Source: a virus
Lineage: Duplodnaviria > Heunggongvirae > Uroviricota > Caudoviricetes
IMG/VR virus record: IMGVR_UViG_2630968800_000001
DNA: 49,775 bases
Reading direction: 5' to 3' (one strand)
Part shown: positions 5,779 through 32,298 of the stretch, piece by piece
Layout: every line of letters begins with the position of its first letter
How positions within the stretch are numbered: position 1 is the first letter of the stretch
Program-made: the position numbers and the translations under genes
Notes under the pieces: generated by a model
Databases searched by the model: none
What the model was told of the DNA's origin: nothing
The model's input: only the letters and a program-made list of their open reading frames with translations

Positions 5779-5842
5779 TGAGATAGCCTGAGTTTAACGG
5801 ACACTCCTTCCTGAAATAGAATGGCATCAGAAGGAGCTAATA

Positions 5843-6145
5843 ATGAGCAGAAAAACCCAACGTTACTCTAAAGAGTTCAAAGCCGAAGCTGTCAGAACGG
5901 TTCTTGAAAATCAACTTTCGATCAGTGAAGGCGCTTCCCGATTATCCCTTCCTGAAGGCACTTTAGGACAATGGGTTACCGCCGCCAGAAAAGGGCTCGG
6001 TACTCCTGGTTCCCGCACGGTGGCTGAACTGGAATCTGAAATTCTGCAACTGCGTAAGGCGTTAAATGAAGCTCGCCTTGAGCGCGATATATTAAAAAAA
6101 GCAACAGCGTATTTTGCACAGGAGTCGCTGAAAAATACGCGTTAA
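5843..6145 (+). CDS. IS600 OrfA (HTH transposase subunit)
   Basis: MSRKTQRYSKEFKAEAVRTV... 100 aa, typical IS3-family OrfA. Confidence 0.85.
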   Translation: MSRKTQRYSKEFKAEAVRTVLENQLSISEGASRLSLPEGTLGQWVTAARKGLGTPGSRTVAELESEILQLRKALNEARLERDILKKATAYFAQESLKNTR

Positions 6146-6180
6146 TCGAACAATGGCGACAACAATTTCCCATTGAAGCG

Positions 6181-6999
6181 ATGTGTCAGGTATTTGGTGT
6201 ATCCAGGAGCGGTTATTACAACTGGGTACAGCATGAACCCTCAGACAGAAAACAAAGTGATGAGCGGCTAAAACTGGAGATTAAGGTGGCACATATCCGC
6301 ACTCGCGAAACATATGGAACCCGGCGGCTCCAGACGGAGCTGGCAGAGAATGGCATCATCGTTGGTCGTGACCGACTGGCATGTCTTCGTAAGGAGCTGA
6401 GGCTACGCTGTAAGCAGAAACGCAAGTTCAGAGCGACTACGAACCCGAACCACAATCTGCCAGTTGCGCCAAATCTGCTGAACCAGACGTTCGCTCCTAC
6501 AGCACCAAATCAGGTCTGGGTGGCGGACCTGACGTATGTTGCCACACAGGAGGGATGGTTGTACCTCGCTGGCATCAAAGATGTTTATACGTGCGAAATT
6601 GTCGGCTACGCCATGGGAGAGCGCATGACAAAAGAGCTGACAGGTAAAGCCCTGTTTATGGCGCTCAGGAGCCAGCGCCCACCTGCCGGGCTAATCCACC
6701 ACTCTGATCGAGGTTCACAGTACTGCGCATACGATTACCGGGTCATACAGGAGCAGTCTGGTCTGAAAACATCAATGTCGCGTAAAGGTAACTGTTACGA
6801 CAACGCTCCGATGGAAAGCTTCTGGGGAACGCTGAAAAATGAGAGCCTGAGCCACTATCGTTTTAATAACCGGGATGAAGCCATCTCAGTAATACGGGAA
6901 TACATTGAGATTTTCTACAATCGTCAGCGTCGTCACTCTCGTCTGGGGAATATCTCCCCGGCAGCCTTCAGGGAAAAATATCATCAGATGGCTGCTTAA
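6181..6999 (+). CDS. IS600 OrfB (DDE integrase-core)
   Basis: 272 aa with DDE-type motifs (HSDRGSQY, NAPMESFWGTLK). Confidence 0.85.
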   Translation: MCQVFGVSRSGYYNWVQHEPSDRKQSDERLKLEIKVAHIRTRETYGTRRLQTELAENGIIVGRDRLACLRKELRLRCKQKRKFRATTNPNHNLPVAPNLLNQTFAPTAPNQVWVADLTYVATQEGWLYLAGIKDVYTCEIVGYAMGERMTKELTGKALFMALRSQRPPAGLIHHSDRGSQYCAYDYRVIQEQSGLKTSMSRKGNCYDNAPMESFWGTLKNESLSHYRFNNRDEAISVIREYIEIFYNRQRRHSRLGNISPAAFREKYHQMAA

Positions 7000-7042
7000 A
7001 AAAAGAACAAATGGTAGTGTCCGCTATTGCCAGTACACCTCA

Positions 7043-7241
7043 ATTCTTTGGCATTTTTTACCTCGTTACGCGCGTCTGTGGCTTTGCCAACGGATACTTC
7101 CGCGTGCGCACGAGTGAACCAGTGCGTGGCAACGTCTTCCTCCACAACATGACGGCCTTTAACAAACTCGCGCCGAGAACCGTCGGGAAGCGTGAGCACA
7201 AACGGGGTATGTACGTGTATTACTGCATCATTTTTTGCCAT
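7043..7241 (-). pseudogene. small head-module ORF truncated by IS600
   Basis: ORF starts at 7241 (MAKNDAVIHVHTPFVL...) and after 66 native codons runs into the IS600 right end. Confidence 0.4.
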
Positions 7242-7282
7242 CGGGTCATCCTTAATGGCCCCGCCAGGGGGCCATGTGGCTG

Positions 7283-8224
7283 TTAAATGCCATCAACGTA
7301 CGAAATGGTTTCTTTGTACACTGGCTCGACTGCACCCAGCTTGCCGTAGTAAGTGACGATCTGATACAGACCGCGATACTGCACCGGCACGCTCTGAAGC
7401 GGAACCAGCGGGTAGCGGACGTATTTTTTATCGTTGGTGTACGCAACTATGCGATCCTTATTCCCCACACCACGGCCTTTCAGCCATTTAACCGCGCGGA
7501 TATTCAGCGGAACACCGTTCTGGTGATAGCTGATGGTGTTGGTCTGAAGGTTCGTCAACAGGGACTGGTTACCTGCAGATGAAACGATGATGCTGGACAA
7601 CAGAGCAAACTGCTCAGGCGGGATCAGCAAATCACGCGGAACCACAGAGTAACCAGAAGCGGCCCACGCATCAGACAGCACCTGGTTAATGCTTGCGCGG
7701 ATTTCGTCCGGTGTTGAGGTTGCCCACGTTTTGGCAGCGTTGTTGACAGGCACGCCGTCCAGGGTAACAAGGCCTTTCAGGTTTAATGCGGAATCGCCAA
7801 CATATACCTGTTCATCGTTATCCATCTGCCATTTCAGTTGCATACCGTCATACTTCTGCGTATCAATCGGGCGGCCGACCTGCTGAGCAGCCTGCAATTC
7901 TATGACCGTCCAGCCAAGTTCCATCCCCCACAGGTTCAGCGGGTTACCGGATTTGCCGATATCCACGTTCACGCCAGCAATAGCGGTTGAGTCTTTGCCT
8001 ACCCAGTTTTTTCCATTCGGATTTGCGCCAGTACCCGCAGCGGCGAAGCTGGTATTCGTCCAGCTGGAAATGTCATCTGCGATGGAGGCGTCTTCACGCA
8101 GTTGAATATCGCGGCTCCAGGTGTACCCCACCAGTGGCAGGTTCAGCGTCTGGTCGAGTCTCTCCAGCTCCCCGATGAGAAAGGCACCAGAGCTGTCAAC
8201 GGTTGCCTGATCAAAAGTAATCAT
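7283..8224 (-). CDS. phage major capsid protein
   Basis: 313-aa ORF directly downstream of scaffold/decoration genes in a TerL-portal-MuF-scaffold-MCP order; followed by a GC hairpin at 7257-7273. Confidence 0.6.
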   Translation of the reverse strand: MITFDQATVDSSGAFLIGELERLDQTLNLPLVGYTWSRDIQLREDASIADDISSWTNTSFAAAGTGANPNGKNWVGKDSTAIAGVNVDIGKSGNPLNLWGMELGWTVIELQAAQQVGRPIDTQKYDGMQLKWQMDNDEQVYVGDSALNLKGLVTLDGVPVNNAAKTWATSTPDEIRASINQVLSDAWAASGYSVVPRDLLIPPEQFALLSSIIVSSAGNQSLLTNLQTNTISYHQNGVPLNIRAVKWLKGRGVGNKDRIVAYTNDKKYVRYPLVPLQSVPVQYRGLYQIVTYYGKLGAVEPVYKETISYVDGI

Positions 8225-8368
8225 TCGTCTGTTCCTTAAATCTTCCAGGAAATTTCTGCATTGCCGTCAGCATCACCGGCACCTGTGAATTCAGCGTTGG
8301 TCAGCACCACGTTTTTGCCACTGACTGACGTGGACATGAATCCACCCAGAGGCACTTTGATGGATTCA

Positions 8369-8725
8369 TCAGTGGAGATCGCCTTTTTTGATAGTGCTGG
8401 CATCAAAATCAGAACCGAGATTAACGGTCACGTAGCCACGCTTCATGGCGTCGCCCGGGAAGTTCTTGCCTGTTCCCACCTGGCGAACCATGTCCGGCTG
8501 CGACGTGGTCGGATAAGGGCGCACGTAGATCCCCTTCACCTTGTCTGCGGTATCACCATCTGCCAGCGGCACGAAAAAACCGTCATCATCGTATTTACCA
8601 GCCAGGCCATAGGCAGCGAAGGCGTTATCGGATTTAAGGACCACCGGTTCGACGGTTAAGTCCTGCGGGCGAGAGACAGCCCCGGCAATGCCAACAGGCA
8701 TCCGGTACAGAAATACATTATTCAT
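8369..8725 (-). CDS. putative head decoration/structural protein
   Basis: 118-aa ORF between scaffold-like and capsid genes; function by position only. Confidence 0.3.
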   Translation of the reverse strand: MNNVFLYRMPVGIAGAVSRPQDLTVEPVVLKSDNAFAAYGLAGKYDDDGFFVPLADGDTADKVKGIYVRPYPTTSQPDMVRQVGTGKNFPGDAMKRGYVTVNLGSDFDASTIKKGDLH

Positions 8726-8728
8726 TTT

Positions 8729-9949
8729 TTACCCTTTACGGTTTGCCCAGAATTCAGCGTTTTGTTTGTTCAGGGAAGCGATACTGGTCATGCCCATGTT
8801 TAGGCGCTGTGCATCGCCGGTGGTGGCGCGGGTGTTTCGCCCTTTGGCAACCTCAGACACGGCATTAAACGCCATGTCGACCGATTGTTTCGGTAATTTG
8901 CGGATATCCGCATCACCGACTATCTGGCGAACCAGCGTTTTGTCAGCAGAAGCCAGAACCTCGCGTTTGAACGCGGTCGGTTTCATCTTACGGCTCAGAT
9001 CGATACCCGGAACGATAACTTCGGCACGCCAGGCTGAGTCACCAGTAATCGTGGTTTCCTCTTCATCGTCCTCGCCGTCACCGGTCGGATTATCGTCAGG
9101 CTTATTATCGTTATCGCCCGTGGCATTTCTTTCCAGCTTAGCCAGCAGGGCTTTCAGTAATGTTTTGAGGTCATCATCACTGTCGCCGGTTGGATCTCCG
9201 CCCATCTCTGGTGCTTTGTCCGGTAGTGGTTGCTGCGGGGACAGGTTGATGTTGAGATTAACGCCCTGCGGCAAATCCCCCTCATCTCCTGTAACCGATG
9301 CGGGAGCCGACTCCACCAGTTCGTTCATGGTGTCGGCATCTCCTGTCTTGATGGCCGCACGCATGCGGTTCCACCAGTTTTTCTTTTGATTTGCCATTGT
9401 GTCTCTGTCTCCAATTGCACAACGATTTCCGGCTCTGCCTTTAGGGACAAGAGCCACATGGTTTCCGGTAATATCGACCTGCTCGGCTTTACCTGGCTCG
9501 GTCTGCTCGTACTCCGCGTCATAGCCGCACGACACTTCGCGCAGGCCATCTTCGATAAGCTGAATGGCGCTTTCGTCTTTGACGATAAGGTCAGCCAGCA
9601 TCAAATCAGACTGCTCACCCGTCCCGCGCCGGACATTCTGGAGGTGCCCGACAGCAAGCACTTTCCAGTTCTCGGGATTTACCAGCCGCACATTCCCGTT
9701 TTCATCTTCAGGATGCAGGATCGTGATGCTCATCCCTTCGAATGAGGCAAGCGTGGCCGGATGGAATACCTGCTCAGGAGAACGCGTGACGACTATTTCA
9801 ACGAACTTATCGGGTTTCAGTTTTGGCAGGTCATCAGCACCATAGAGCTGCTTACCTGTTCGTCCTATCGGCACGTCTTTGCACAGCAACGAGCCGTCAG
9901 CCAGGCGGTATCGGGTTTCCCCGAGCCTGGTCTCAAAAAAGTATTTCAT
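8729..9949 (-). CDS. putative prohead scaffold/protease-like protein (DUF2213-type)
   Basis: 406 aa with a low-complexity acidic, D/G/T-rich centre, placed between MuF-like and capsid genes. Confidence 0.45.
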   Translation of the reverse strand: MKYFFETRLGETRYRLADGSLLCKDVPIGRTGKQLYGADDLPKLKPDKFVEIVVTRSPEQVFHPATLASFEGMSITILHPEDENGNVRLVNPENWKVLAVGHLQNVRRGTGEQSDLMLADLIVKDESAIQLIEDGLREVSCGYDAEYEQTEPGKAEQVDITGNHVALVPKGRAGNRCAIGDRDTMANQKKNWWNRMRAAIKTGDADTMNELVESAPASVTGDEGDLPQGVNLNINLSPQQPLPDKAPEMGGDPTGDSDDDLKTLLKALLAKLERNATGDNDNKPDDNPTGDGEDDEEETTITGDSAWRAEVIVPGIDLSRKMKPTAFKREVLASADKTLVRQIVGDADIRKLPKQSVDMAFNAVSEVAKGRNTRATTGDAQRLNMGMTSIASLNKQNAEFWANRKG

Positions 9950-9952
9950 GGG

Positions 9953-10696
9953 TTATGCTGCCCTTTTCATTGCGAATGGAACGCGAACAAACACGATCTC
10001 TTTATAGCAGCGGCAGTTTGGCAGCTCGCCCGCGTGGCCGGTCATGCCGTCCAAAGTTGGAGGTGAATCCCAGCGGACGAATTTACCTTTCATGTGATCG
10101 TGGGAATCTCGGACATCGCCATCATCGGCTGTACGCCAAATATAACCATCCGAGCCAATAGCTATCGCTCGGGCCATATCCAGCGCGCCCGTTGCTCTTC
10201 CCAGTTCCGTTCGGGCAATCAGATCGGCCCTAGACTTAGCAACATCGCCGGTAGATGCAATCTCTTTAGCAAACTGCTCCGCCCGACCACCGGTGACAAC
10301 AGCCTCTATCGCTTTGTTCTGGATGTCGTACACCCTGTCTGCGGCCTCGAGAGGCAGAGATTTGATGTACTTGACCTGTTCGGCGATGATGGATTGCATC
10401 ACCTGGCCCACAGGAGCGCTTTCCACAAGATTGCGGAGCTCGCGACTGATGTTCTTGCTGTGTTGCCGCCAAACTTTCTCGTTCTGCCGGGTTAGGTCCG
10501 CAGTAAAGTTTTCCGCGACCTTTGTCGCCCAGGGGGTGATGATTTCACTGTAACGCTCCAGCGCCGCAATAATTTCCGTGATACTGTCATTTGAACCATC
10601 GTAGCGACCATTTACGATGTCTCCGACCGCCCTCGCTATCCTGCGTAGGCTGGTTCGATACCGGATTTCCGCCTGACGGCTCCTGCGGTTCGTCAT
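9953..10696 (-). CDS. Mu F-like minor head (morphogenesis) protein
   Basis: C-terminal ...DGYIWRTADDGDVRDSHDHMKGKFVRWDSPP... typical of the Phage_Mu_F family; start ambiguous (overlaps portal 3' end). Confidence 0.7.
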   Translation of the reverse strand: MTNRRSRQAEIRYRTSLRRIARAVGDIVNGRYDGSNDSITEIIAALERYSEIITPWATKVAENFTADLTRQNEKVWRQHSKNISRELRNLVESAPVGQVMQSIIAEQVKYIKSLPLEAADRVYDIQNKAIEAVVTGGRAEQFAKEIASTGDVAKSRADLIARTELGRATGALDMARAIAIGSDGYIWRTADDGDVRDSHDHMKGKFVRWDSPPTLDGMTGHAGELPNCRCYKEIVFVRVPFAMKRAA

Positions 10697-12053
10697 CAGG
10701 TTCGCCGATGCCGGGCGGCGCTTCATCTTCGGCATTCTCGATGTCCTCGTTGGTAATGGATGCCCCTATGCCGGTTACGTCAGAATTTTCTCGCAAATCA
10801 GTCATAGCGGCTTTCAGTGTCATCAGACCATCACCCAGCGCCGTACTGATTGCGTTGGTGGTGTTTAACGCCACCGTTGAGCGATCGACATCAGACATTT
10901 GCCAGAGCGGGTTAAACTCAAACGTGAAATCGTCCGGCAGCGGCTTGCCAAGTTCCGAACGATGCATGATGTCCAGTATCCGCCGCACCGGAAGACGTAA
11001 ACGCCTCTCCTGCAACGAACTGATGCGATCGTAATAGTTGGCAAGGTCTGCATCACCGGTAGAAAATCCTTTCGGGGACTGTCCGAACAACCGCACCAGT
11101 GGGATACCAACAGCGCCACTAATCTGTTCTGCAAACTGCGAAAGGATGTCATCCAGACCACTGAAGCTGTACTGATGGGTTTCAAACTTATCCCGCGAGT
11201 CCATGAGCGTCATGCCTTCATTACTCTGGAACTGTCGAATCAGGTCGATATTCTTCAGCAACGCTTCATACGCAGGACCACCAAGTGCGATAAGCTCGCG
11301 TAGCTTCTCCACGCTGTAGGTACGCAAATGCGCCTTGTAGACCAGCTGCGCCGCGCCGACAGTAGCGCTGTCGAACGCGGTAAGACGATCCCAGATACGC
11401 TCTACAACCGACATTCCCCATTCGTTCTCGGTCATCTTCTGCTGAAATGGCAACGTGACGCCATCAAAGCGAATCAGGCGACTGTGATGAATGCGCCAGG
11501 CAGGAATTCCCGTTGCTGTGGTCACCACATCGTAAAACTCAGGTTTACCCAGGTCCGGCCCCATATCTTTAATGCGGCGGGTCAGTGCCGGGTCGACCAT
11601 CCAGCGGTCGAGCGGGAGAATCCCCTTAAACTTGCCCTTACCGATGGTTTCGGGTCGCAGCGGGGTCATTGGTGCCTGCCCCTCAATCATGATGAAACCC
11701 ACCGCGCCGCCGTAGAGGCGCGACCATTTCAGCACGTCATTCAGCGCATCCCAGATTTGCAACTCATCCAGTTGTGATTCGAGAATGCCACGATCTTTTG
11801 CATCAATTTCCGAAGTGATGCGAATGCCTTTGCGGGTCATATCATCCGGGATAGCATCGACTGCTTCGCCGATGATCCAGGATGAACGATAGGACCATTC
11901 CACCAGCATGCGGTTACGACTGGTGAAATTAGCCCGGTAGGTGGATGCTGAGTGCTGGTTAGGTGTCTGCATCCCTACTCGGGCAATAAAATTCTCATAA
12001 CCATCAGCTGTGGCCTGCACAGTTCGCCGCAGGGCTTGTTTGTTTCGTGCCAT
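10587..12053 (-). CDS. phage portal protein
   Basis: 488 aa with acidic C-terminal tail; start ATG overlaps TerL stop (TGATG) as usual for terminase-portal pairs. Confidence 0.75.
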   Translation of the reverse strand: MARNKQALRRTVQATADGYENFIARVGMQTPNQHSASTYRANFTSRNRMLVEWSYRSSWIIGEAVDAIPDDMTRKGIRITSEIDAKDRGILESQLDELQIWDALNDVLKWSRLYGGAVGFIMIEGQAPMTPLRPETIGKGKFKGILPLDRWMVDPALTRRIKDMGPDLGKPEFYDVVTTATGIPAWRIHHSRLIRFDGVTLPFQQKMTENEWGMSVVERIWDRLTAFDSATVGAAQLVYKAHLRTYSVEKLRELIALGGPAYEALLKNIDLIRQFQSNEGMTLMDSRDKFETHQYSFSGLDDILSQFAEQISGAVGIPLVRLFGQSPKGFSTGDADLANYYDRISSLQERRLRLPVRRILDIMHRSELGKPLPDDFTFEFNPLWQMSDVDRSTVALNTTNAISTALGDGLMTLKAAMTDLRENSDVTGIGASITNEDIENAEDEAPPGIGEPDDEPQEPSGGNPVSNQPTQDSEGGRRHRKWSLRWFK

Positions 12054-12781
12054 CAGGCCTGTCTCCCCAGCTGTTCCCAGATATCCAGCGATGTATCGAT
12101 TGGCGCGAAGGCCATAATGAATGCATCAGCAACGTTTGGTGACGGTATCTCGCGTTTTGCGAGGTCTTTTTTACTTTCGACCATCACACGTCCGTTACGG
12201 TCGAAATCACGATGAGGTGTTGTCAGTTCCAGTTTCAGCTTTTCAAGCAACGGACAACGAGAATCTATGCTGATCAGCTCATCCACAGGATACTGTTCTC
12301 CGTTGTTAATGGCGTTAAACGTATTTCTGAAACGGTCAGCCACCATGCCTGAGCCTTAAGATTTGCGAAAAAGTCTTTGTTGGGGATGCCGTTGTACTCG
12401 TCATCTGGCTCATGCACACCAGCACCGGCGTTAAACCTCTGGTAATTCACACGTCGCGCGTATGCGTTCTCGCTCTTCCGGTCAGCGTTAATTTCAGAGA
12501 ATTTAGCACCGGCAGACGCACCAACACCGATAGAGTCGTAAACAATATCTGCTTCACGCTCCAGCGCCGCCTGATAAGTACGCTGGCAGCTCTTCAGTAA
12601 TTCATCTTCTTTGGCCTTCCATTCGTCGGCCCAGAAAACAACGGATCCGTGACGGTAAACGTTAGCGCACTTATCTGTACCACTGTCAGCCACGTCAAAG
12701 CCAATACGCTTTCTTCCACTGGGTTCGAAATTTAACGTTTTGTGCGCATCCACTGCGGCTTCTATCCAAGACAGTTTGATG

Positions 12782-12786
12782 ATTGC
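12782..12786. repeat. IS2 target-site duplication ATTGC (copy 1)
   Basis: Identical 5-mer flanks both IS2 ends. Confidence 0.8.
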
Positions 12787-12797
12787 TGGATTTGCCC

Positions 12798-13703
12798 CTA
12801 TATTTCCAGACATCTGTTATCACTTAACCCATTACAAGCCCGCTGCCGCAGATATTCCCGTGGCGAGCGATAACCCAGCGCACTATGCGGATGCCATTCG
12901 TTATAATGCTCGAACGCCTCTGCAAGGTTCTTTGCTGCCGTTAACCCGTCTGGTTTGGGCATGATACTGATGTAGTCACGCTTTATCGTTTTCACGAAGC
13001 TCTCTGCTATTCCGTTACTCTCCGGACTCCGCACCGCCGTGTTCTTCGGTTCAAGTCCCAACATCCGGGCGAACTGGCGTGTTTCATTAGCCCGGTAGCA
13101 TGAACCATTATCCGTCAGCCACTCCACTGGAGACGACGGAAGATCGTTGCCGAAGCGGCGTTCCACCGCTCCCAGCATGACGTCCTGTACTGTTTCACTG
13201 TTGAAGCCGCCGGTAGTCCCCGCCCAGTGCAGTGCCTCACGATCACAGCAGTCCAGCGCGAACGTGACACGCAGTCTCTCTCCGTTATCACAGCAGAACT
13301 CGAACCCGTCAGAGCACCATCGCTGATTGCTTTCTTTCACGGCCACTCTGCCTGTATGTGCCCGTTTCGATGGCGGTACAGCAGGTTTTCGCTCAAGCAA
13401 CAGCGCATTCTGGCGCATGAGCCGGTAAACACGTTTGGCATTGATCGCAGGCATACCATCAAGTTCTGCCTGTCTGCGAAGCAGCGCCCATACCCGACGA
13501 TAACCATACGTGGGCAGCTCTCCGATAACATGGTGTATACGGAGAAGCACATCCGTATCATCAGTGTGACGACTGCGGCGGCCATCCATCCAGTCATCGG
13601 TTCGTCTGAGAATGACGTGCAACTGCGCACGCGACACCCGGAGACAACGGCTGACTAAGCTTACTCCCCATCCCCGGGCAATAAGGGCGCGTGCGCTATC
13701 CAC
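12798..13703 (-). CDS. insD: IS2 transposase InsD (OrfB)
   Basis: 301 aa recognised as IS2 InsD. Confidence 0.9.
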
Positions 13704-14026
13704 TTTTTTGCCCGTCCATATTCAACGGCTTCTTTGAGGAGTTCATTTTCCATCGTTTTCTTGCCGAGCAGGCGCTGGAGTTCTTTAATCTGCTTCATGG
13801 CGGCAGCAAGTTCAGAGGCAGGAACAACCTGTTCTCCGGCGGCCACAGCAGTAAGACTTCCTTCCTGGTATTGCTTACGCCAGAGAAATAGCTGGCTGGC
13901 TGCTACACCATGTTGCCGGGCAACGAGGGAGACCGTCATCCCCGGTTCAAAGCTCTGCTGAACAATTGCGATCTTTTCCTGTGTGGTACGCCGTCTGCGT
14001 TTCTCCGGCCCTAAGACATCAATCAT
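13661..14026 (-). CDS. insC: IS2 InsC (OrfA)
   Basis: [24 protein letters not shown]... 121 aa recognised as IS2 InsC. Confidence 0.9.
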
Positions 14027-14117
14027 CTGTTCTCCAATGACTAGTCTAAAAACTAGTATTAAGACTATCACTTAAATAAGTGATACTGGTTGTCTGGAGA
14101 TTCAGGGGGCCAGTCTA

Positions 14118-14122
14118 ATTGC
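14118..14122. repeat. IS2 target-site duplication ATTGC (copy 2)
   Basis: Identical 5-mer flanks both IS2 ends. Confidence 0.8.
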
Positions 14123-14735
14123 CGCATCATCATCAGACTCCGGAACGCCCTCATACACATGTTTAAAACCATCCGGATCACGGCGTCGCGCCGCGTCGAT
14201 AACCTTAAGCATGGTGTCAGACAGAAACGGATTTTCGTCATAGTTAATTTTGCGGATGAGAGTGCCTTCGGGCGGATCAACAACGAAGTTGCGCCAGACG
14301 AAATCAGTAACAAGTCCGGGGTTGAATATGAACCAGCATTCCGAACCCTCTTTACGGATCGTTGGCTCCAGAATTTTCCACTGGTATTCCGTCAGTGCGT
14401 GGGCTTCTTCCAGCCACAACATATCGATCCCCTCCAGTGACTTAATTTCTTCGATGTTGCGCCATAATCCATAAAAAACAAATTCCGAGCCAGTAACCCG
14501 GTTAATGATTTTGTTGTTCAGAATACGGAAACGGTGCCGCAGACCAAACCTGTCTATCTGAATTTTGAGCAGGGTATACACCGACTCTTCGATTTTATTC
14601 TGGATCTGACGGGCACAACAAAAACGCAGGGTGTATTTATTCGACAGAAATATGGCAATGCCAGCGGCATCCCATGATTTTGACGATGACCGACCACCAT
14701 AAAGCACTTTGTTACGTGCCCGCATAGTCCAGAAA

Positions 14736-15500
14736 CTACGTAAAGCCGGATTCAGCGTCGGTTTGGATGTCAGAGTAGAAGTCATTGAGGTCACGCTCTC
14801 CATTGCCATCATCAATACCTGCATCACGGCGAAGACGATCAGCCTCCAGAGACACCTTATCAGTGGCGGCCTTGCGGTAGGCTGTATCAGCAAATATTTT
14901 TCCTACCGTCGCAAGCGTGCCAACGATGGACTCAATACGAACTGTATTGCGCATCATTGCTTTCTCGGCGGCGCTGATATTTTCAATCAGCATCTTCCTT
15001 TCCTGGTCCCCATTAGCATCTTCCAGCGACACCAACCACCGACCAATATTCTCTGCAGCGACAAGGTTGTTAGCACGAAGGCGAAATAATTCGTCCTCGA
15101 GCGTCAACGCTTTAGCGTCCTCTATCACCTCATCTTTGAGCAGAAGGCGACGGGCATAACCACCGTGTTTTAATGCCTGCTGGTTACCGGGTTGGAATGG
15201 GTTAGTCGGGGGATCGGTACGCATTCCGCGTATCGGTTTCGTATCCGGTGTAGATTCTGTTTTTAGTTGCGTACTTTTTTGTGTAAGGCCAGTAATGGCA
15301 GGCTTTCTGCTGGTACGCACTTTCCTTTTTTGCGTACCATTTTTGCAAACCTGCGTACCGCCACTGCGTGCCCAATCAAGCTTTTTGGCCCTCTTCCTGA
15401 TAGCCCCTTCTGTAACGCCGTATTTCTCGCCTATATCACGGAGGCTAAGGACTCCGGCCCGGTATGCCGATTCGATGGCCTCCCAGTCCGGTTTTGCCAT
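14736..15500 (-). CDS. terminase small subunit
   Basis: 254 aa, N-terminal HTH-like segment (LSLRDIGEKYGVTEGAIRKRAKK), immediately upstream of TerL. Confidence 0.65.
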   Translation of the reverse strand: MAKPDWEAIESAYRAGVLSLRDIGEKYGVTEGAIRKRAKKLDWARSGGTQVCKNGTQKRKVRTSRKPAITGLTQKSTQLKTESTPDTKPIRGMRTDPPTNPFQPGNQQALKHGGYARRLLLKDEVIEDAKALTLEDELFRLRANNLVAAENIGRWLVSLEDANGDQERKMLIENISAAEKAMMRNTVRIESIVGTLATVGKIFADTAYRKAATDKVSLEADRLRRDAGIDDGNGERDLNDFYSDIQTDAESGFT

Positions 15501-15697
15501 GATTATGCTTCCTGTGATTTACTGTTATCGCTGCCTGTCACAATAGGTTGCTTTAATTCTTCCTCATCACTCACTCCTGCGACGCTCCGTGGCAGGGCCC
15601 CCCACAGGAGTACCTTGTAAATGTAAGGTGTTTAAGCCTAAATTAAGTCGTATCACGGTTAAATAGCAAAGAAAAATTCACAGAAGGAAAGACATTG

Positions 15698-16207
15698 ATG
15701 GAGTGGATAAATGCTTTGATGAACTATTTTGTACTTCATCCATATCGCCTATGGGGGCTTCTTTTTATAATAGCGTTCACAAAATCCACTTTACTCATTT
15801 CGGCGATATTGCCACCAGCATCAATTATGATGGCCACTGTAATTACAGTCAGCAAGACGACTCTTTCACCATGGGAAGCTGGAATCACGGTCATGAGTGG
15901 CGCATGGTGCGGTACTATCGTTAATTACCATCTTGGTATAATAATTGGGCATATCCCTCAACTTGCATGTATAATATCGAGCCGTTCCAATACAATAGAA
16001 CGGGTTCGCCTTCAGTTGCAAAATAACTCTGTGTCAATACTTTTCACTTCGCGCTTTATCGCCGTGCTGCGTTACATTGCTCCTTTGGTGGCAGGAATGT
16101 TGCAACTTCATCCAGTGAAAGTGTATACAGTGAGTCTGATTTCAGCTGCTAGCTGGTCAGCACTTTATGTTGGTAGTTTTAGCTTCGTGTTGCCTTTTTT
16201 TAGCTAA
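15698..16207 (+). CDS. DedA/YqaA-like small integral membrane protein (moron)
   Basis: 169 aa, multiple hydrophobic helices, LLISAILPPASIMMATVI... pattern like the YqaA/DedA family; AT-rich; convergent with Rz in the position bor occupies in lambda. Confidence 0.45.
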   Translation: MEWINALMNYFVLHPYRLWGLLFIIAFTKSTLLISAILPPASIMMATVITVSKTTLSPWEAGITVMSGAWCGTIVNYHLGIIIGHIPQLACIISSRSNTIERVRLQLQNNSVSILFTSRFIAVLRYIAPLVAGMLQLHPVKVYTVSLISAASWSALYVGSFSFVLPFFS

Positions 16208-16295
16208 ACTGCCCATAAAAAGCTCTTGCGAATCCAGCTTCCCCCATTCCTCTGACAACAGAATCTGATTTGAAGGATAATGAGTAAAATTACCG

Positions 16296-16541
16296 CTACC
16301 CCCCAAGGCATTGGATCCTGATGTACTCCTGAAGCATTCTCAATGCTGTCTGGTCGCTGATGATTCCGTCCCGGATACCGAGAACGTTTCGTCCAGCAAC
16401 TGGAGAGAGTTCGACGGTGGCATCATTGCCCATGCCGGAGGCGCTGGAGGTTTCGGCTGAGGATGGCACAGGGCATTTTCCTTTGACGAGCACCCGACCA
16501 CCATTATCAAGCTTGCGCCGAAGAGCATCATTTTCAGCTTT
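16296..16541 (-). pseudogene. Rz: spanin Rz, 5'-truncated by IS911
   Basis: Encodes ...[20 protein letters not shown]...GIRDGIISDQTALRMLQEYIRIQCLGG*; 16365-16541 is the reverse complement of 23471-23647. Confidence 0.8.
16340..16541 (-). pseudogene. Rz1: o-spanin Rz1, lacking its first 2 codons (IS911 junction)
   Basis: +1 frame inside Rz: ...[37 protein letters not shown]..., lipobox VVGC. Confidence 0.6.
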
Positions 16542-22715: not shown

Positions 22716-23249
22716 ATGAGCGCAAAAATCAAATACGGCCTGTCGGCTGCTGTTCTGGCGCTGATTGCCGCAGGCGCGTCTGCTCCCCAGATACTTGACC
22801 AGTTTCTGAACGAAAAAGAGGGTAATCACACAACGGCATACCGTGATGGTTCTGGCATATGGACCATCTGTCGTGGTGCCACAATGGTGGATGGTAAGCC
22901 TGTCATACCGGGAATGAAGCTGTCGAAGGAAAAATGTGACCAGGTTAACGCTATTGAACGTGATAAGGCGCTGGCATGGGTGGAGCGCAATATTAAAGTA
23001 CCTCTGACCGAACCCCAGAAAGCGGGTATAGCGTCATTTTGCCCCTATAACATTGGCCCCGGTAAGTGTTTCCCGTCGACGTTTTATAAGCGGCTGAATG
23101 CCGGTGATCGTAAGGGCGCATGCGAGGCGATTCGCTGGTGGATAAAAGATGTTGGGCGCGATTGCCGCATACGTTCAAATAACTGCTATGGACAGGTTAT
23201 TCGTCGTGACCAGGAAAGCGCATTAGCCTGTTGGGGGATAGATCAATGA
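22716..23249 (+). CDS. R: SAR endolysin (T4-lysozyme fold)
   Basis: N-terminal Gly/Ala-rich signal-anchor-release segment ([16 protein letters not shown]) then E-x8-D-x5-T catalytic triad. Confidence 0.85.
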
Positions 23250-23465
23250 GCAGAGTCACCGCGATTATCTCCGCTCTGGTTATCTGCATCATCGTCTGCC
23301 TGTCATGGGCTGTTAATCATTACCGTGATAACGCCATTACCTACAAAGAGCAGCGCGACAAAAACGCCGGAGAACTGAAGCTGGCGAACGCAACCATTAC
23401 TGACATGCAGCAGCGCCAGCGTGATGCTGATGCACTCGATGCTAAATACACGAAGGAGTTAGCTG

Positions 23466-23647
23466 ATGCGAAAGCTGAAAATGATGCTCTTCGGCGCAAG
23501 CTTGATAATGGTGGTCGGGTGCTCGTCAAAGGAAAATGCCCTGTGCCATCCTCAGCCGAAACCTCCAGCGCCTCCGGCATGGGCAATGATGCCACCGTCG
23601 AACTCTCTCCAGTTGCTGGACGAAACGTTCTCGGTATCCGGGACGGG
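23466..23647 (+). pseudogene. Rz1: o-spanin Rz1, 3'-truncated by IS600
   Basis: Embedded +1 frame [39 protein letters not shown]... Confidence 0.7.
23471..23647. repeat. 177-bp segment duplicated in inverse orientation at 16365-16541
   Basis: Direct base-by-base comparison: identical apart from the last base. Confidence 0.8.
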
Positions 23648-24911: not shown

Positions 24912-25219
24912 AACTACTCATTGCCAGATGGGAACTGACCGCAGAACAGGCTGTCGCACAGCAGTTAAAAAATCAGGTGTCAAAAGGAAATCTTATCGAT
25001 ACCGGATTTTGTATTTTTGCCCTTAGTAAGCTGGCGATGGCTTTATCCAGTACGCTTGACTCCATTCCTTTGTCCATGCAACGACAGTTCCCGGATTTAA
25101 CGCCGCGTCATATTGATCATCTGAAAATCCTTATTGCTAAGGGAGCGAATCAGTGCGCGCGTGCGGGGGATAAATTACCGGATTTACTCGATGAATATAT
25201 CAGAACAACAACTGAGTAA
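24912..25219 (+). pseudogene. Nu1: terminase small subunit Nu1, C-terminal ~100 codons only
   Basis: ...DTGFCIFALSKLAMALSSTLDSIPLSMQRQFPDLTPRHIDHL...LLDEYI matches the Nu1 C-terminal half; 5' half and cos replaced by IS600. Confidence 0.8.
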
Positions 25220-27101
25220 TATGATGGTGGCAGTCACTATCGCACTGCAGCCACTGGTCAGGGTATTGCCGGTGACGGCTGTAGAATGGGCCGATCAAAA
25301 TTATTACCTGCCTAAAGAATCGTCATACGGTGAGGGGGAATGGAAAACGCTGCCGTTTCAGGTCGCCATCATGAACTGCATGGGCAATGACGAGATTCGT
25401 ACAGTTAACCTGATTAAATCTGCCCGTGTTGGTTATACAAAAATGGTGCTTGGTGTGATCGGGTATTTTATTGAGCACAAATCCCGCAACACTCTTCTTT
25501 TTCAGCCGACGGACTCAGCTGCTGAAGATTTTATGAAGTCTCACGTGGAAGCAACAATTCGTGATGTTCCTTGCCTGAAAAAACTTTCTCCCTGGCTGGG
25601 CCGGAAACACCGGGATAATACGCTCACACTGAAGCGTTTTTCCTCTGGTGTGGGGTTCTGGTGTTTGGGTGGTGCTGCTGCCAAAAACTACCGTGAAAAA
25701 TCTGTCGATGTGGTCTGCTATGACGAACTCTCCTCGTTTGAACCGGATGTGGAAAAAGAAGGTTCGCCAACACTGCTTGGCGATAAACGTATTGAAGGTT
25801 CGGTATGGCCAAAATCCATACGCGGTTCAACGCCAAAAATTAAAGGCTCCTGTCAGATTGAAAAAGCTGCGAATGAATCTGCGCATTTCATGCGGTTTTA
25901 TGTCCCTTGCCCTCATTGCGGGGAGGAGCAGTATCTGAAGTTTGGCGATGATGCGACGTCGTTTGGCCTGAAATGGGAGAAGGGTAAACCGGAAACGGTG
26001 TATTACCTGTGTGAACATAATGGCTGCGTGATCCGTCAGTCTGAACTTGATCAGACCGGGGGGCGCTGGATTTGTGACAATACCGGGATGTGGACGTGTG
26101 ACGGTCTGACGTTTTTCAGTGCTTCGGGTAATGAAATTCCGCCGCCGCGCTCCATCACTTTCCATATATGGACGGCGTACAGTCCGTTCACCACCTGGGT
26201 ACAGATAGTCTGTGACTGGCTGGATGCACTGAAAGATCCCAACGGCGTGAAAACTTTTGTGAACACCACGCTGGGCGAGACCTGGGAAGAGGCCGTGGGC
26301 GAAAAACTCGATCACCAGGTACTGATGGATAAGGTTGTGCCTTACACGGTAACGGTGCCTGTCCGGGTGGTTTATCTGACGGCGGGCATTGACTCGCAGC
26401 GAAACCGTTTTGAGATGTATGTCTGGGGGTGGGCTCCGGGAGAGGAAGCCTTTCTGGTGGATAAAATCATCATCATGGGACGTCCTGATGAGGAAGAGAC
26501 GCTGTTACGTGTGGATGCGGCGATCAATAAAAAATACCGCCATGCAGACGGTACCGAAATGACCATTTCCCGTGTCTGCTGGGATATCGGGGGGATCGAT
26601 GGCGAAATCGTGTATCAGAGGTCAAAAAAACACGGTGTTTTCCGGGTACTGCCGGTAAAAGGTGCCTCTGTCTATGGCAAGCCGGTGATCACCATGCCGA
26701 AAACCCGCAATCAGCGGGGTGTGTATCTGTGTGAGGTGGGGACGGATACCGCAAAAGAAATTCTCTATGCCCGAATGAAGGCCGATCCCACCCCTGTGAA
26801 TGAGGCCACATCGTATGCCATCCGCTTTCCTGATAATCCGGAGATTTTTTCGCAGACAGAGGCACAACAACTGGTGGCGGAGGAACTGGTGGAAAAGTGG
26901 GAAAAAGGAAAGATGCGTCTGTTGTGGGATAACAAAAAGCGGCGTAACGAAGCGCTGGACTGCCTGGTGTATGCCTATGCGGCATTACGTGTGTCCGTGC
27001 AACGCTGGCAACTTGATCTGGCTGTGCAGTTGCATCCCGCAAGGATGCAACTGCACAACCGACCCTTGAAGAACTGGCAGCGAAGCTGTCCGGAGGAGTG
27101 A
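25191..27101 (+). CDS. A: terminase large subunit gpA (lambda-like)
   Basis: MNISEQQLSNMM...TAVEWADQNYYLPKESSYGEGEWKTLPFQ... collinear with lambda gpA; last ~27 codons lack homology in this frame. Confidence 0.88.
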   Translation: MNISEQQLSNMMVAVTIALQPLVRVLPVTAVEWADQNYYLPKESSYGEGEWKTLPFQVAIMNCMGNDEIRTVNLIKSARVGYTKMVLGVIGYFIEHKSRNTLLFQPTDSAAEDFMKSHVEATIRDVPCLKKLSPWLGRKHRDNTLTLKRFSSGVGFWCLGGAAAKNYREKSVDVVCYDELSSFEPDVEKEGSPTLLGDKRIEGSVWPKSIRGSTPKIKGSCQIEKAANESAHFMRFYVPCPHCGEEQYLKFGDDATSFGLKWEKGKPETVYYLCEHNGCVIRQSELDQTGGRWICDNTGMWTCDGLTFFSASGNEIPPPRSITFHIWTAYSPFTTWVQIVCDWLDALKDPNGVKTFVNTTLGETWEEAVGEKLDHQVLMDKVVPYTVTVPVRVVYLTAGIDSQRNRFEMYVWGWAPGEEAFLVDKIIIMGRPDEEETLLRVDAAINKKYRHADGTEMTISRVCWDIGGIDGEIVYQRSKKHGVFRVLPVKGASVYGKPVITMPKTRNQRGVYLCEVGTDTAKEILYARMKADPTPVNEATSYAIRFPDNPEIFSQTEAQQLVAEELVEKWEKGKMRLLWDNKKRRNEALDCLVYAYAALRVSVQRWQLDLAVQLHPARMQLHNRPLKNWQRSCPEE

Positions 27102-27305
27102 ATGGTTACAGTCGCTGAACTGCAGGCGCTGCGTCAGGCGCGCCTTGATTTATTAACCGGTAAACGGGTTGTGTCGGTACAGAAAGACGGTCGCAGGATC
27201 GAATATACGGCAGCGTCCCTGAATGAGCTTAACCGTGCGATCAACGATGCGGAGTCGGTTCTGGGTACGACCCGACGCCGCCGACCGCTGGGAGTGAGGT
27301 TATGA
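27102..27305 (+). CDS. W: head-tail joining protein gpW
   Basis: LTGKRVVSVQKDGRRIEYTAASLNEL matches lambda W. Confidence 0.85.
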   Translation: MVTVAELQALRQARLDLLTGKRVVSVQKDGRRIEYTAASLNELNRAINDAESVLGTTRRRRPLGVRL

Positions 27306-28895
27306 AACGAACGCCTGTCCTGATTGATGTGAACGGCGTTCCGCTTCGTGAGAGTCTCAGCTACAACGGAGGCGGCGCAGGATTTGGCGGGCAAATGGCA
27401 GAGTGGTTACCACCGGCGCAGAGTGCCGATGCGGCCCTGTTGCCTGCATTGCGTCTGGGGAATGCCCGGGCAGATGATCTGGTGCGCAATAACGGTATCG
27501 CGGCTAATGCGGTGGCCCTGCATAAGGATCATATCGTCGGGCACATGTTTCTTATCAGCTACCGTCTGAACTGGCGTTGGCTGGGGATGCGGGAGACCAC
27601 GGCAAAAAGTTTTGTCGGGGAGGTGGAAGCAGCCTGGTCGGAATACGCAGAAGGAATGTTTGGCGAGATCGACGTGGAAGGGAAACGCACGTTTACGGAA
27701 TTTATCCGTGAAGGGGTGGGCGTGCATGCCTTTAACGGCGAAATCTTTGTGCAGCCGGTCTGGGATACGGAAACCACGCAGTTATTCCGTACGCGTTTTA
27801 AAGCCGTGAGTCCGAAACGGGTGGACACGCCAGGACACGGTATGGGGAACCACTTTCTGCGGGCCGGGGTTGAGGTCGATCGGTATGGGCGGGCGATTGC
27901 GTACCATATCTGTGAGGATGATTTTCCGTTCTCTGGTGCCGGACGCTGGGAGCGGATCCCGCGTGAGCTTCCCACCGGGCGTCCGGCCATGCTGCATATT
28001 TTTGAGCCGGTGGAGGACGGGCAGACCCGTGGGGCTAATCAGTTTTACAGCGTAATGGAGCGGATGAAGATGCTGGACTCCCTGCAGGCCACGCAGCTTC
28101 AGTCGGCCATTGTGAAGGCGATGTATGCAGCCACAATCGAAAGTGAACTTGATACCGAAAAGGCATTTGAATATATCGCGGGGGCACCGCAAGGTCAGCA
28201 GGATAATCCGCTTATTAATATTCTGGAGAAGTTCACCCGCTGGTATGACACGAATAACGTGACGCTGGGCGGTGTTAAAATTCCGCACCTTTTTTCCTGG
28301 CGATGCGCTGAACCTGCAGACAGCGCAGGATTCAGACAATGGATTTTCGGCGCTTGAACAGGCGCTGCTGCGGTATATTGCAGCCGGTCTTGGCGTTTCC
28401 TACGAACAGTTGTCCCGTGATTACTCGAAGGTCAGTTACTCAAGTGCCCGCGCCTCCGCCAATGAGTCGTGGCGCTATTTTATGGGGCGGCGAAAATTTA
28501 TTGCGGCCCGGCTGGCCACGCAGATGTTTTCCTGCTGGCTGGAAGAGGCGCTTCTTCGGGGGATTATTCGTCCGCCACGGGCGCGTTTTGATTTTTACCA
28601 GGCGCGTTCAGCCTGGTCACGGGCAGAGTGGATTAGCTCCGGAAGAATGGCCATTGACGGGCTCAAGGAGGTCCAGGAATCGGTGATGCGCATTGAGGCC
28701 GGACTGAGCACGTATGAGAAAGAACTGGCACTGATGGGCGAAGATTATCAGGACATTTTCCGCCAGCAGGTCAGGGAATCCGCAGAGCGCGAAAAAGCCG
28801 GACTCTCACGTCCGGTGTGGATAGCCCAGGCGTATCAGCAGCAGATAGCGGAGAGTCGCAGGCCGGAAGAGGAGACAACATCACGTGAGACGTAA
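27302..28895 (+). pseudogene. B: portal protein gpB with +1 frameshift
   Basis: N-part (to 28357) and C-part (28272-28895) both match lambda gpB but in different frames; shift is in a T6 run at 28290-28295. Confidence 0.85.
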
Positions 28896-30390
28896 TCTTT
28901 CACATATTATCGCTGCGGCATTCAATGAGCCGCTGCTTCTGGAGCCCGCCTATGCGCGGGTTTTCTTTTGCGCGCTCGGGCGTGAGATGGGCGCAGCAAG
29001 CCTTTCGGTACCGCAACAGCAGGTACAGCTTGACGCTCCCGGGATGCTGGCTGAAACGGACGAGTACATGGCCGGAGGCAAACGACCTGCCCGTGTTTAC
29101 CGGGTGGTGAACGGTATTGCTGTACTGCCGGTGACCGGCACGCTGGTACACCGGCTGGGTGGCATGCGGCCATTTTCCGGAATGACTGGCTATGACGGCA
29201 TTGTCGCCTGTCTTCAGCAGGCAATGGCGGACACTCAGGTACGGGGCGTACTGCTGGACATTGACAGTTCTGGCGGGCAGGCCACCGGCGCGTTTGACTG
29301 CGCTGACATGATTTACCGTCTCCGGCAGCTGAAGCCTGTCTGGGCACTGTGCAATGACACGGCCTGTTCAGCCGCCATGTTACTGGCATCGGCCTGCTCC
29401 CGACGGCTGGTTACCCAGACATCCCGTATCGGCTCCATTGGGGTGATGATGGGCCATGTCAGCTATGCCGGTCATCTGGCACAGGCCGGTGTGGATATCA
29501 CGCTGATTTACGCCGGATCGCACAAGGTGGATGGCAATCAGTTTGAATCCCTGCCAGCAAAGGTTCGCCAGGACATGCAGCAGCGCATTGATGCGGCGCG
29601 CCGGATGTTTGCTGAAAAAGTGGCGATGTATACCGGTTTATCTGTGGATGCGGTTATGGGAACAGAGGCCGCCGTTTTTGAAGGTCAGTCCGGTATTGAG
29701 GCCGAACTGGCGGATGAATTAATCAATGCGTCGGACGCCATCAGCGTGATGGCTGCGACGCTGAACACACACGATACAGGAGGCACTATGCCGCAATTAA
29801 CTGCAACGGAGGCTGCCGCGCAGGAGAACCAGCGAGTGATGGGGATCCTGACGTGTCAGGAAGCGAAAGGACGTGAACAACTGGCCACGATGCTGGCAGG
29901 GCAACAGGGTATGAGCGTTGAGCAGGCCCGGGCGATTCTGGCCGTGGCGGCACCGCAACAATCTGGTGTATCTGCGCAGAGTGAAGCCGATCGCATTATG
30001 GCATGTGAAGAGGCGAAAGGACGTGAACAACTGGCGGCAACGCTGGCGGCGATGCCGGAGATGACGGTGGAAAAAGCCCGTCCGATTCTGGCTGCTTCAC
30101 CGCAGGCGAATGCCGGACCCTCACTTCGTGATCAGATTATGGCCCTGGATGAGGCAAAAGGGGCAGAGGCGCAGGCTGAAAAACTGGCGGCCTGTCCGGG
30201 GATGACCGTGGAGAATGCCCGGGCTGTACTGGCGGCAGCCTCAGGCAGGGCAGAACCGGTTTCTGCATCCACAACCGCCATGTTTGAACATTTCATGGCG
30301 AACCATTCACCGGCAGCGGTACAGGGTGGCGTGCCACAGACGTCAGCAGACGGTGATGCGGACGTGAAAATGCTCATGGCCATGCCATGA
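28885..30390 (+). CDS. C: prohead protease gpC with nested scaffold Nu3 region
   Basis: Collinear with lambda C (S49/ClpP-like core ...SIGVMMGHVSYAG...); C-terminal motif present in three diverged tandem copies. Confidence 0.85.
   Translation: MRRNLSHIIAAAFNEPLLLEPAYARVFFCALGREMGAASLSVPQQQVQLDAPGMLAETDEYMAGGKRPARVYRVVNGIAVLPVTGTLVHRLGGMRPFSGMTGYDGIVACLQQAMADTQVRGVLLDIDSSGGQATGAFDCADMIYRLRQLKPVWALCNDTACSAAMLLASACSRRLVTQTSRIGSIGVMMGHVSYAGHLAQAGVDITLIYAGSHKVDGNQFESLPAKVRQDMQQRIDAARRMFAEKVAMYTGLSVDAVMGTEAAVFEGQSGIEAELADELINASDAISVMAATLNTHDTGGTMPQLTATEAAAQENQRVMGILTCQEAKGREQLATMLAGQQGMSVEQARAILAVAAPQQSGVSAQSEADRIMACEEAKGREQLAATLAAMPEMTVEKARPILAASPQANAGPSLRDQIMALDEAKGAEAQAEKLAACPGMTVENARAVLAAASGRAEPVSASTTAMFEHFMANHSPAAVQGGVPQTSADGDADVKMLMAMP
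29836..30270 (+). repeat. three diverged tandem coding repeats (~141-156 bp) in C/Nu3
   Basis: Protein-level repeat IMxxxEAKGxEQxAxxLAxxPxMTVExARxILAA seen three times. Confidence 0.6.
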
Positions 30391-30426
30391 AGTCAGTGCT
30401 GACCATCAATATGAGGTTTTTACAAT

Positions 30427-30774
30427 ATGGTAACGAAAACCATCACTGAACAGCGTGCGGAAGTACGTATTTTTGCCGGTAATGATCCGGCCCATACCGC
30501 CACAGGCAGCAGCGGGATTTCCTCGGCAACACCGGCTCTGACGCCCCTGATGCTGGATGAGGATACCGGGAAACTGGTGGTCTGGGACGGACAGAAGGCA
30601 GGCCATGTGGTTGGCATACTGGTACTGCCGCTTGAAGGTACAGAGACGGTGCTGACGTATTACAAGTCGGGGACCTTTGCGACGGAGGCCATCCACTGGC
30701 CTGAGAGAGTGGATACACACAAAAAGGCGAATGCCTTTGCCGGCAGTGCCCTGAGTCACGCAGCGCTGCCGTAA
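30427..30774 (+). CDS. D: head decoration protein gpD
   Basis: ...DPAHTATG...TPLMLDEDTGKLVVWDG...YYKSGTF... matches lambda D. Confidence 0.85.
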   Translation: MVTKTITEQRAEVRIFAGNDPAHTATGSSGISSATPALTPLMLDEDTGKLVVWDGQKAGHVVGILVLPLEGTETVLTYYKSGTFATEAIHWPERVDTHKKANAFAGSALSHAALP

Positions 30775-30831
30775 CATTTTATCAGGTCACTGCGGTAGCC
30801 TGACTGATTTCTGAATGAAAGGAACTGATTT

Positions 30832-31860: not shown

Positions 31861-31911
31861 TCCGTGAGCGGGAGCTAAATGCTCCCGTTTTTCATTCAAT
31901 CAGGAGCGGGT

Positions 31912-32298
31912 ATGGCTACGAAAGAAGAAAACCTGAAACGTCTTTGTGAGCTGGCTGAGAGGCTGGGGCGTGAACCGGATGTCTCCGGTAGTGCGGCAGA
32001 TATTGCGCAGCGAGTGGCGGAACTGGAGGAAGAGCTTGGAGATGCGGGGGAGGTCGCAGAGCCGGATACGTACTCACCATCGAAAGATGATCCGACCGCG
32101 CATAAAGGCGAGTCAGTTCCTGAACAGCCAGGCATTGTTACCGGAGACGAAACGGGGCAGGTTACGGTGGTGGCACTGGCGACACTGCATACAAAATGTA
32201 ATGGTTCAGTGATATTTGTTTCACCGGGAACGTCGTTTCGTGTTTCTGCTGAGGTGGCTGCCAGCATGGCGGCAGGTGGTCTGGCAAAAAGGCAGTAA
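31912..32298 (+). CDS. FI: DNA packaging protein gpFI
   Basis: MATKEENLKRLCELAERLGREP...TVVALATLHT... matches lambda FI. Confidence 0.8.
   Translation: MATKEENLKRLCELAERLGREPDVSGSAADIAQRVAELEEELGDAGEVAEPDTYSPSKDDPTAHKGESVPEQPGIVTGDETGQVTVVALATLHTKCNGSVIFVSPGTSFRVSAEVAASMAAGGLAKRQ

Follow-up and report, generated by a model that had tools for sequence, protein, structure and literature searches.

In this study, the window, by which we mean the whole stretch of DNA analysed (49,775 nt), was observed to begin with chromosomal genes that adjoin the left end of a Mu-like prophage. These are followed by a head and terminase block of a second prophage (prophage B), by the forward replication, lysis, head and tail genes of a third (prophage A), and by a type III secretion effector gene. 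Copies of IS600 and IS911 stand between the blocks, and one truncated copy of the Rz/Rz1 gene pair is found in each of the prophage-B and prophage-A parts. The features and their coordinates are collected in Table 1.

Table 1. Features of the window, numbered from its first letter
Feature	Position	Strand	Remarks
Chromosomal dpiA-dcuC-pagP	1-2917
Mu-like prophage left end	2918-5778		Adjoins pagP
Repressor-like gene of the Mu-like left end	3255-3764	-
Mu transposase gene	4147-5781		Truncated at residue 544 by IS600 copy 1
IS600 copy 1	5779..7042	+	Flanks tat / att, no target-site duplication
Prophage-B fragment, head/terminase block	7043..16541	-	Rz 3' -> DedA -> terS -> PBSX-type terL -> portal, head
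IS2 inside prophage-B terL	12787..14117	-	5-bp target-site duplication ATTGC; simple insertion
terS of prophage-B fragment	14736-15500
DedA gene	15695-16207	+
Rz 3' fragment	16296..16541	-	Rz nt 226-471 including stop; prophage-B allele, 0 mismatches to the intact B Rz of FDAARGOS_943
Rz1 fragment	16340..16541	-	Lacks first 5 nt (ATG + 2 nt); lipobox LIMVVGC and stop kept
Left arm of inverted repeat	16366..16541	-	Rz nt 226-401
IS911	16542-17790	+	1249 bp; orfA 16578-16916, orfB 16943-17782; starts TGAAGTGGCAC
Prophage-A segment	17791..23646	+	ATPase, DnaB-like helicase, NinH, Q, 4 tRNAs, holin, 209-aa ORF, lysozyme, Rz 5'
Four tRNA genes, prophage-A late region	21199-21509		ARAGORN: Met(CAT), Arg(TCT), Thr(TGT), Gly(TCC)
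209-aa ORF between holin and endolysin	22021-22650		No Pfam match; hypothetical; kept in all prophage-A relatives
Rz 5' fragment in prophage-A lysis cassette	23246..23646	+	Rz nt 1-401
Embedded Rz1	23466..23646	+	Rz1 nt 1-181 of 207; C-terminus exchanged for 4 IS-encoded residues
Right arm of inverted repeat	23471..23646	+	Rz nt 226-401
IS600 copy 2	23648-24911	+	1264 bp; starts TGAGGTAGCC; flanks ggg / aac, no target-site duplication
Prophage-A continuation	24912..34361	+	From nt 203 of Nu1-like terS: lambda-like terL, W, portal, protease, D, E, tail; span of the VL40 match, block runs on
IpaH-type T3SS effector gene	46953-48716	-	587 aa; LRR and NEL E3 ligase domains

Several features of prophage A were noticed alongside these. 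The first tRNA gene of its cluster is annotated as tRNA-Ile by RefSeq in relatives, and a similar tRNA cluster is present in prophage B and in a third type of prophage, C. The lambda-type portal gene (27302-28895) is split into ORFs of 351 aa and 207 aa, both matching Phage_portal_2; VL40, a relative, has a single gene of 1593 nt at this place, and in the window a frameshift has probably made it a pseudogene. Inside the S49 protease/scaffold gene, a 94-nt direct repeat (29849-29942 and 29999-30092, 73% identity) is probably an internal domain repeat. The distal end of prophage A carries the ipaH gene; the same holds for O121 201805972, where ipaHe follows the tail-fibre genes.

With reference to the two Rz/Rz1 segments, which we call the 16-kb and 23-kb copies, an earlier note on this DNA had identified both as Rz/Rz1 from the letters alone, and our profile searches agree with it. 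PF03245 (Rz) was matched above its cut-off in the 23-kb copy (E = 2.2e-23, profile positions 1-104 of 126) and in the 16-kb copy (E = 3e-11, positions 48-125), and PF06085 (Rz1) was matched above its cut-off in both at E ~ 3.5e-21, with the lipobox LIMVVGC present and the ORF starting at Rz nt 221. Also as claimed there, the copies abut different insertion sequences, IS911 at 16 kb and IS600 at 23 kb, and neither of them retains complete Rz and Rz1 reading frames. The 16-kb copy is cut by IS911 between Rz nt 225 and 226, that is, after nt 5 of Rz1 (ATGCG/A), and lacks Rz nt 1-225 and Rz1 nt 1-5, while the stops of Rz (16296-16298) and Rz1 (16340-16342) are preserved; a cut early in Rz1 and a retained Rz stop are the boundaries that the note had described, and they were right. 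The 23-kb copy is cut by IS600 after Rz nt 401, lacks Rz nt 402-471 and Rz1 nt 182-207, and its Rz frame reads into IS600 and ends at a TGA of the IS end, giving a product of 134 aa. When joined in silico (Rz nt 1-401 plus nt 402-471), the copies rebuild Rz intact (471 nt) together with the Rz1 of 207 nt embedded in it, which the note had anticipated.

The 23-kb copy lies directly downstream of a holin gene (21802-22017, PF04971) and a lysozyme gene (22716-23249, PF00959), with the Rz ATG at 23246 overlapping the stop of the latter. In the window, the DNA upstream of the 16-kb copy has been exchanged for IS911; its orthologues display the order holin-RrrD-Rz. Like the two-component spanin Rz/Rz1 of phage lambda, the gene pair combines an Rz-family domain with an Rz1 lipoprotein ORF in the +1 frame carrying the lipobox Cys, and the 23-kb pair follows right after holin and endolysin as in lambda. 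Unlike lambda Rz/Rz1, the 16-kb copy is devoid of the Rz N-terminal membrane anchor and the Rz1 start codon, and the 23-kb copy is devoid of the C-terminal 23 residues of Rz and of the Rz1 C-terminus. Judging from these truncations, a working spanin would not be expected from either copy.

Both copies contain Rz nt 226-401, and a repeat search showed that over this stretch the left arm is the exact reverse complement of the right arm (100% complementarity over 176 nt), the two being separated by 6929 nt. This pair is the sole inverted repeat of at least 60 nt within the 49.8-kb window. The inverted identity reported in the earlier note is real on pairwise comparison; its length is one base less than the 177 bp given there, as base 16365 is T (complement A) and base 23647 is G, which ends the repeat at 176 nt, all Rz alleles having A at that position. 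A perfect match of this length cannot have arisen by chance, and the single-strand DNA folding of the 176-nt arm was unremarkable (z-score -1.8). The 20.4-kb arrangement with both copies recurs in five independent assemblies at 99.9-100% identity, with CP007037.1 matching the window at 100% over 20,415 bp and four further assemblies displaying the same arrangement at >=99.9%; both Rz copies are therefore real and not an assembly artefact.

The insertion sequences next to these copies were identified from their structure. IS911 has the expected length of about 1.25 kb, terminal inverted repeats starting TGAAGTGG, and both orfA (HTH_Tnp_1) and orfB (rve); it is 99% identical to the RefSeq-annotated IS911 in locus L006, the Pfam families being read on identical loci. 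Its flanks, ttt and gac, do not show the 3-4 bp target-site duplication of a simple insertion, and since the left flank belongs to prophage B and the right flank to prophage A, IS911 marks a rearrangement junction. The two IS600 copies (1264 bp, orfA + orfB) are direct repeats and are 99.4-99.5% identical to the RefSeq-annotated IS600 within the prophage-A locus of VL40. At copy 1, the Mu-like transposase gene, truncated here, is joined to the far end of the prophage-B block, and copy 2 takes the place of exactly 2543 bp of prophage A, with an orphan G at 23647 between it and the Rz fragment. The 3-bp target-site duplication expected for IS600 is absent at both copies. Because target-site duplications are absent, IS911 and both IS600 copies represent rearrangement junctions rather than simple insertions, and the IS-mediated rearrangement proposed in the earlier note is upheld on this ground.

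IS2 was found in the large-terminase gene of prophage B both in the window and in FDAARGOS_943 (L001 16437-17768), at sites 220 bp apart, which are due either to independent insertions or to a local hop. The same gene of VL40 prophage B is intact and free of IS2.

The origin of the two blocks was traced among E. coli genomes, in which the relatives are EIEC-like. A synthetic query of the order lysozyme-Rz-DedA-terS was not covered to 80% by any E. coli genome, and three genomes match it from the start of Rz through terS at 99.5-99.7%, with a different lysozyme (RrrD) upstream. In FDAARGOS_943 and VL40, prophage B has the order tRNAs-holin-RrrD-Rz-DedA-terS-PBSX terL-DUF1073 portal-head-tail, and the window from 16541 to 7043 is colinear with it at 99.3-99.7%, corresponding to 12228-20414 of the VL40 locus L003. 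The forward lysis block matches prophage A in six genomes at 99.5-99.66%. The order of prophage A, taken from VL40, O121 201805972 and FDAARGOS_943, is ATPase-helicase-NinH-Q-tRNAs-holin-ORF-lysozyme-Rz-ParD-ParE-KilA-N-...-terS-terL, broken by single insertion sequences in the O121 and FDAARGOS_943 copies. After terL, VL40 carries a lambda-like head and FDAARGOS_943 different head genes, and the terL of O121 is cut by IS1; the 5' end of the O121 201805972 prophage-A Rz is likewise cut by an IS911 of its own. Window 17791-23646 equals VL40 prophage A (locus L002) 9392-15247 at 99.66% identity, and the match resumes at window 24912 with L002 17791, which is nt 203 of terS, the span 24912..34361 corresponding to L002 17791-27247 at 90.7-97.4%.

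VL40 harbors both prophages intact, prophage A near 2.92 Mb beside yecE and prophage B near 1.63 Mb, and each of them has an Rz of full length; FDAARGOS_943 likewise possesses both prophages with a full-length Rz in each. Neither of the two Rz/IS junctions was present in the 5,426 complete E. coli genomes. A single match covering at least 80% of a junction was retrieved and set aside, as it is the separate IS911 event of O121 201805972. In the phage collection, relatives of the lysis block reach at most 95%, and no record covers 80%.

The two fragments in the window thus come from two different prophages, as the intact relatives place each block in a separate prophage. Our reading is that the two arms are very probably remnants of paralogous Rz/Rz1 cassettes from two different resident prophages, which were joined by IS-mediated rearrangement. 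Rz-like sequence was found at a median of two places per E. coli genome, and at up to nine. The rzpD/rzoD, rzpR/rzoR and rzpQ/rzoQ pairs of K-12 are multiple Rz/Rz1 paralogues in the cryptic lambdoid prophages of one E. coli genome. The window resembles this case in having had several co-resident defective prophages, each with its own very similar Rz/Rz1, and is unlike it in that the two copies lie less than 7 kb apart, inverted, each ending at an insertion sequence.

For the perfect identity of the arms, Rz alleles from the three prophage contexts A, B and C were aligned. The 16-kb fragment (nt 226-471) shows 0 mismatches to the B type, 13 to the C type and 21 to the A type, most of its differences from A and C being in the 3' part, in which the contexts diverge. 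Over nt 226-401, no difference exists among the B alleles, the C alleles and the two copies of the window, apart from a private SNP of the VL40 B copy at nt 271, and the A-type references deviate at nt 350, 394 and 396; within FDAARGOS_943 itself, the Rz genes of the B and C prophages are identical over this stretch. Since distinct prophages of one genome share the stretch identically, the perfect 176-nt identity is no proof of a recent duplication, and from these alignments it would appear to reflect the near-invariance of the Rz module among co-resident lambdoid prophages. The duplication of one gene that the earlier note had proposed is not supported, as the two prophages of the relatives each have their own Rz and such identity is ordinary between prophages.

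The 23-kb fragment stands in an A context without having an A-type allele. It is B/C-like at nt 178-179, 350, 394 and 396, differs least from the C type, with 2 mismatches to it as compared with 7 to A, and carries private SNPs at nt 123 and 124 that occur in no E. coli genome; no exact match to this fragment was found in E. coli, the best being 99.5%. In the comparison of the window with VL40 prophage A (5856 nt), 7 of the 20 mismatches fall inside the 401-nt Rz fragment (binomial p = 2.5e-4). A further six are situated next to it, at the 3' end of the lysozyme gene (23015-23117), so that 13 of the 20 are within 23015-23641. This interval is a mosaic recombinant patch of foreign lambdoid origin, either inherited from another phage or acquired by conversion. 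Because of the non-A alleles and the clustered mismatches in an A-context fragment, some recombination at Rz must be accepted in this lineage.

The clustering of mismatches is also what would be expected if, with two prophages still at the origin, a resident B/C-type Rz had overwritten the prophage-A Rz by gene conversion before the IS600 cut, and the B/C-like alleles at nt 178, 350, 394 and 396 agree with it. We regard this as improbable, as the six clustered mismatches in the lysozyme 3' end lie where the RrrD of prophage B does not align, megablast homology of prophage B to the window starting only at 23244, 2 nt before the Rz ATG. The C prophages show no similarity at the lysozyme in what was an ungapped comparison only, and the fragment has its private SNPs at nt 123 and 124. 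All of these observations are explained equally well by an inherited mosaic from an unsampled donor. That the non-A alleles stem from gene conversion by the resident prophage B alone was rejected, as the patch extends into lysozyme sequence without RrrD homology.

The derivation of the two arms from separate resident prophages is further illustrated by other S. flexneri genomes. The fusion protein of Rz 5' and IS600 is indexed in 311 blocks of the collection, and the junction of Rz 3' and IS911 is also present in S. flexneri SFBU1023 and in 'E. coli' ECMA0423. In these two genomes, IS911 is followed by prophage B's own DUF1133-tRNA-holin-5' region and not by prophage A. Further on come IS600, a gene with a Toprim domain that is unrelated, and a second, inverted IS911, and prophage A is reached only after these. 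A 30-kb IMG/VR contig (L021) spans the whole SFBU1023-type arrangement, its two Rz fragments being separated by 13.2 kb, and a third arrangement has a different left flank, with a group II intron lying within IS911. Both truncations are thus old and shared, and the intervening DNA is still being reshuffled at IS911. Group II intron reverse transcriptase ORFs (RVT_1 + GIIM) were noticed in two different S. flexneri genomes, in IS911 (L010 ~1789-4058) and in the tRNA region of prophage A between Q and holin (L008 6377-7798); none is present in the window.

The junction of IS911 with prophage A was compared between the loci L008, L009, L013, L016 and L021 on one side and L010-L012, L014, L015 and L017 on the other. 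In all these S. flexneri loci, IS911 meets prophage A at one identical nucleotide (17790/17791 of the window, before GACATTCTG). The IRR of IS911 faces prophage A in the window-type and in one other arrangement, and the IRL in a third, and a target-site duplication is absent at this junction in every arrangement. As IS911 meets prophage A in either orientation at the same nucleotide, homologous recombination between IS copies alone is insufficient as an explanation; either the site was struck twice or the insertion of IS911 was end-targeted. The prophage-A target resembles the IS911 end weakly (shuffle p ~ 0.06), and this resemblance is not relied on here.

From these junctions, we infer an order of IS events and their exact mechanism as follows. 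IS911 would first have inserted into the prophage-B Rz at nt 225/226, and recombination with another IS911, or a transposase-mediated event, may then have joined the right arm of prophage B, inverted, to the replication region of prophage A. Within prophage A, an adjacent deletion by IS600 or a recombination of two direct IS600 copies may have followed, so that, in general, homologous IS x IS recombination and transposase-mediated adjacent deletion are the candidate mechanisms. Missing from prophage A through the IS600-associated deletion are the 3' part of Rz, parDE and kilA, the DNA upstream of terS, where cos would lie, and nt 1-202 of terS itself. Two simple IS911 insertions followed by a single inversion would be one conceivable course at IS911. 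The predicted reciprocal junction, in which Rz nt 1-225 of prophage B would border the element ('...GCTGATGCG(AAA)/IS911'), was not found in IMG/VR, and neither was the natural left neighbour of the prophage-A IS911 site ('...CAGTGACAAACT/GACATTCTG') joined to IS911.

The 176-nt repeat might in principle also serve as a substrate for RecA-dependent inversion of the 6.9-kb segment of IS911, replication and lysis genes, though we consider this very doubtful. If it took place, a crossover in the repeat would generate a full-length Rz/Rz1 and fuse the Q-holin-lysozyme of prophage A to the DedA-terS-head of prophage B, in the very order imagined in the earlier note, leaving a 176-nt Rz stub between IS911 and IS600; at a measurable frequency, it would amount to a recombinational switch between two defective prophages. 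The window orientation was seen in all five assemblies that share its arrangement, and the stub of the inverted isoform (IS911-176 nt-IS600) was not found in IMG/VR.

It is highly unlikely that the locus descends from a single prophage of the order lysis-Rz-DedA-terS-head, in which Rz was duplicated and then split by IS-mediated inversion/deletion, the inverted head block and the forward lysis block having once been contiguous as the earlier note suggested. The 100% identity of the overlap, the intact Rz/Rz1 obtained from the join, and the B/C-type rather than A-type SNPs of the A-context fragment would fit such a history. The context, however, contradicts the contiguity: three relatives have the lysis block followed by ParDE-KilA-terS-lambda head, as to the right of IS600 in the window, and the head block has its own holin-RrrD-Rz in the relatives, at a different chromosomal locus. 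Since the lysis block pairs with a lambda-like head and the head block had a lysis cassette of its own, a former contiguity of the two blocks is not supported. Part of this holin-RrrD-Rz region of prophage B also survives beside the same IS911 junction in other S. flexneri genomes, and the inverted block is bounded by IS600 and IS911, not by two inverted copies of one insertion sequence, the two IS600 copies being direct repeats. The Rz fragments are not two halves of one broken gene, because they overlap by 176 nt, and this overlap requires two gene copies anyway. The mosaic patch is the sole evidence leaning towards the contiguity idea, and it does not outweigh the context, as it reaches into lysozyme sequence not shared by prophage B; given the recombination at Rz, a past hybrid of A and B is formally conceivable. 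Finally, an assembly error by which a single Rz locus would have been mis-joined, or collapsed, into two inverted copies can practically be dismissed, as nothing beyond the general risk in IS-rich genomes favours it, and against it stand the five independent assemblies and the different arrangement with both copies in the single contig L021.

The joining of paralogous Rz/Rz1 remnants from two prophages by insertion sequences agrees with what is known of Shigella, in which IS-driven decay and rearrangement of the chromosomes and of their ipaH-associated prophage remnants are well documented (PMC8072062). As in those cases, IS911, IS600 and IS2 interrupt prophage genes in the window, an ipaH gene lies at the prophage end, the IS911 and IS600 junctions are without target-site duplications, and the arrangement differs among S. 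flexneri genomes. We perceived no substantive difference from this process, of which the locus is one instance. It represents ordinary IS-driven prophage decay in Shigella, already present in many public genomes, with no new element or mechanism.

As our data show, a phage gene that recurs as a perfect inverted repeat in an IS-rich genome is not necessarily the sign of a duplication or of a single-locus inversion, for lambdoid modules such as Rz/Rz1 occur in several resident prophages and may be identical over hundreds of bases. Though its importance otherwise extends little beyond careful annotation, the locus records how S. flexneri has joined at least three prophage fragments (Mu-like, B and A) through IS600, IS911 and IS2, into a patchwork that still differs between strains.
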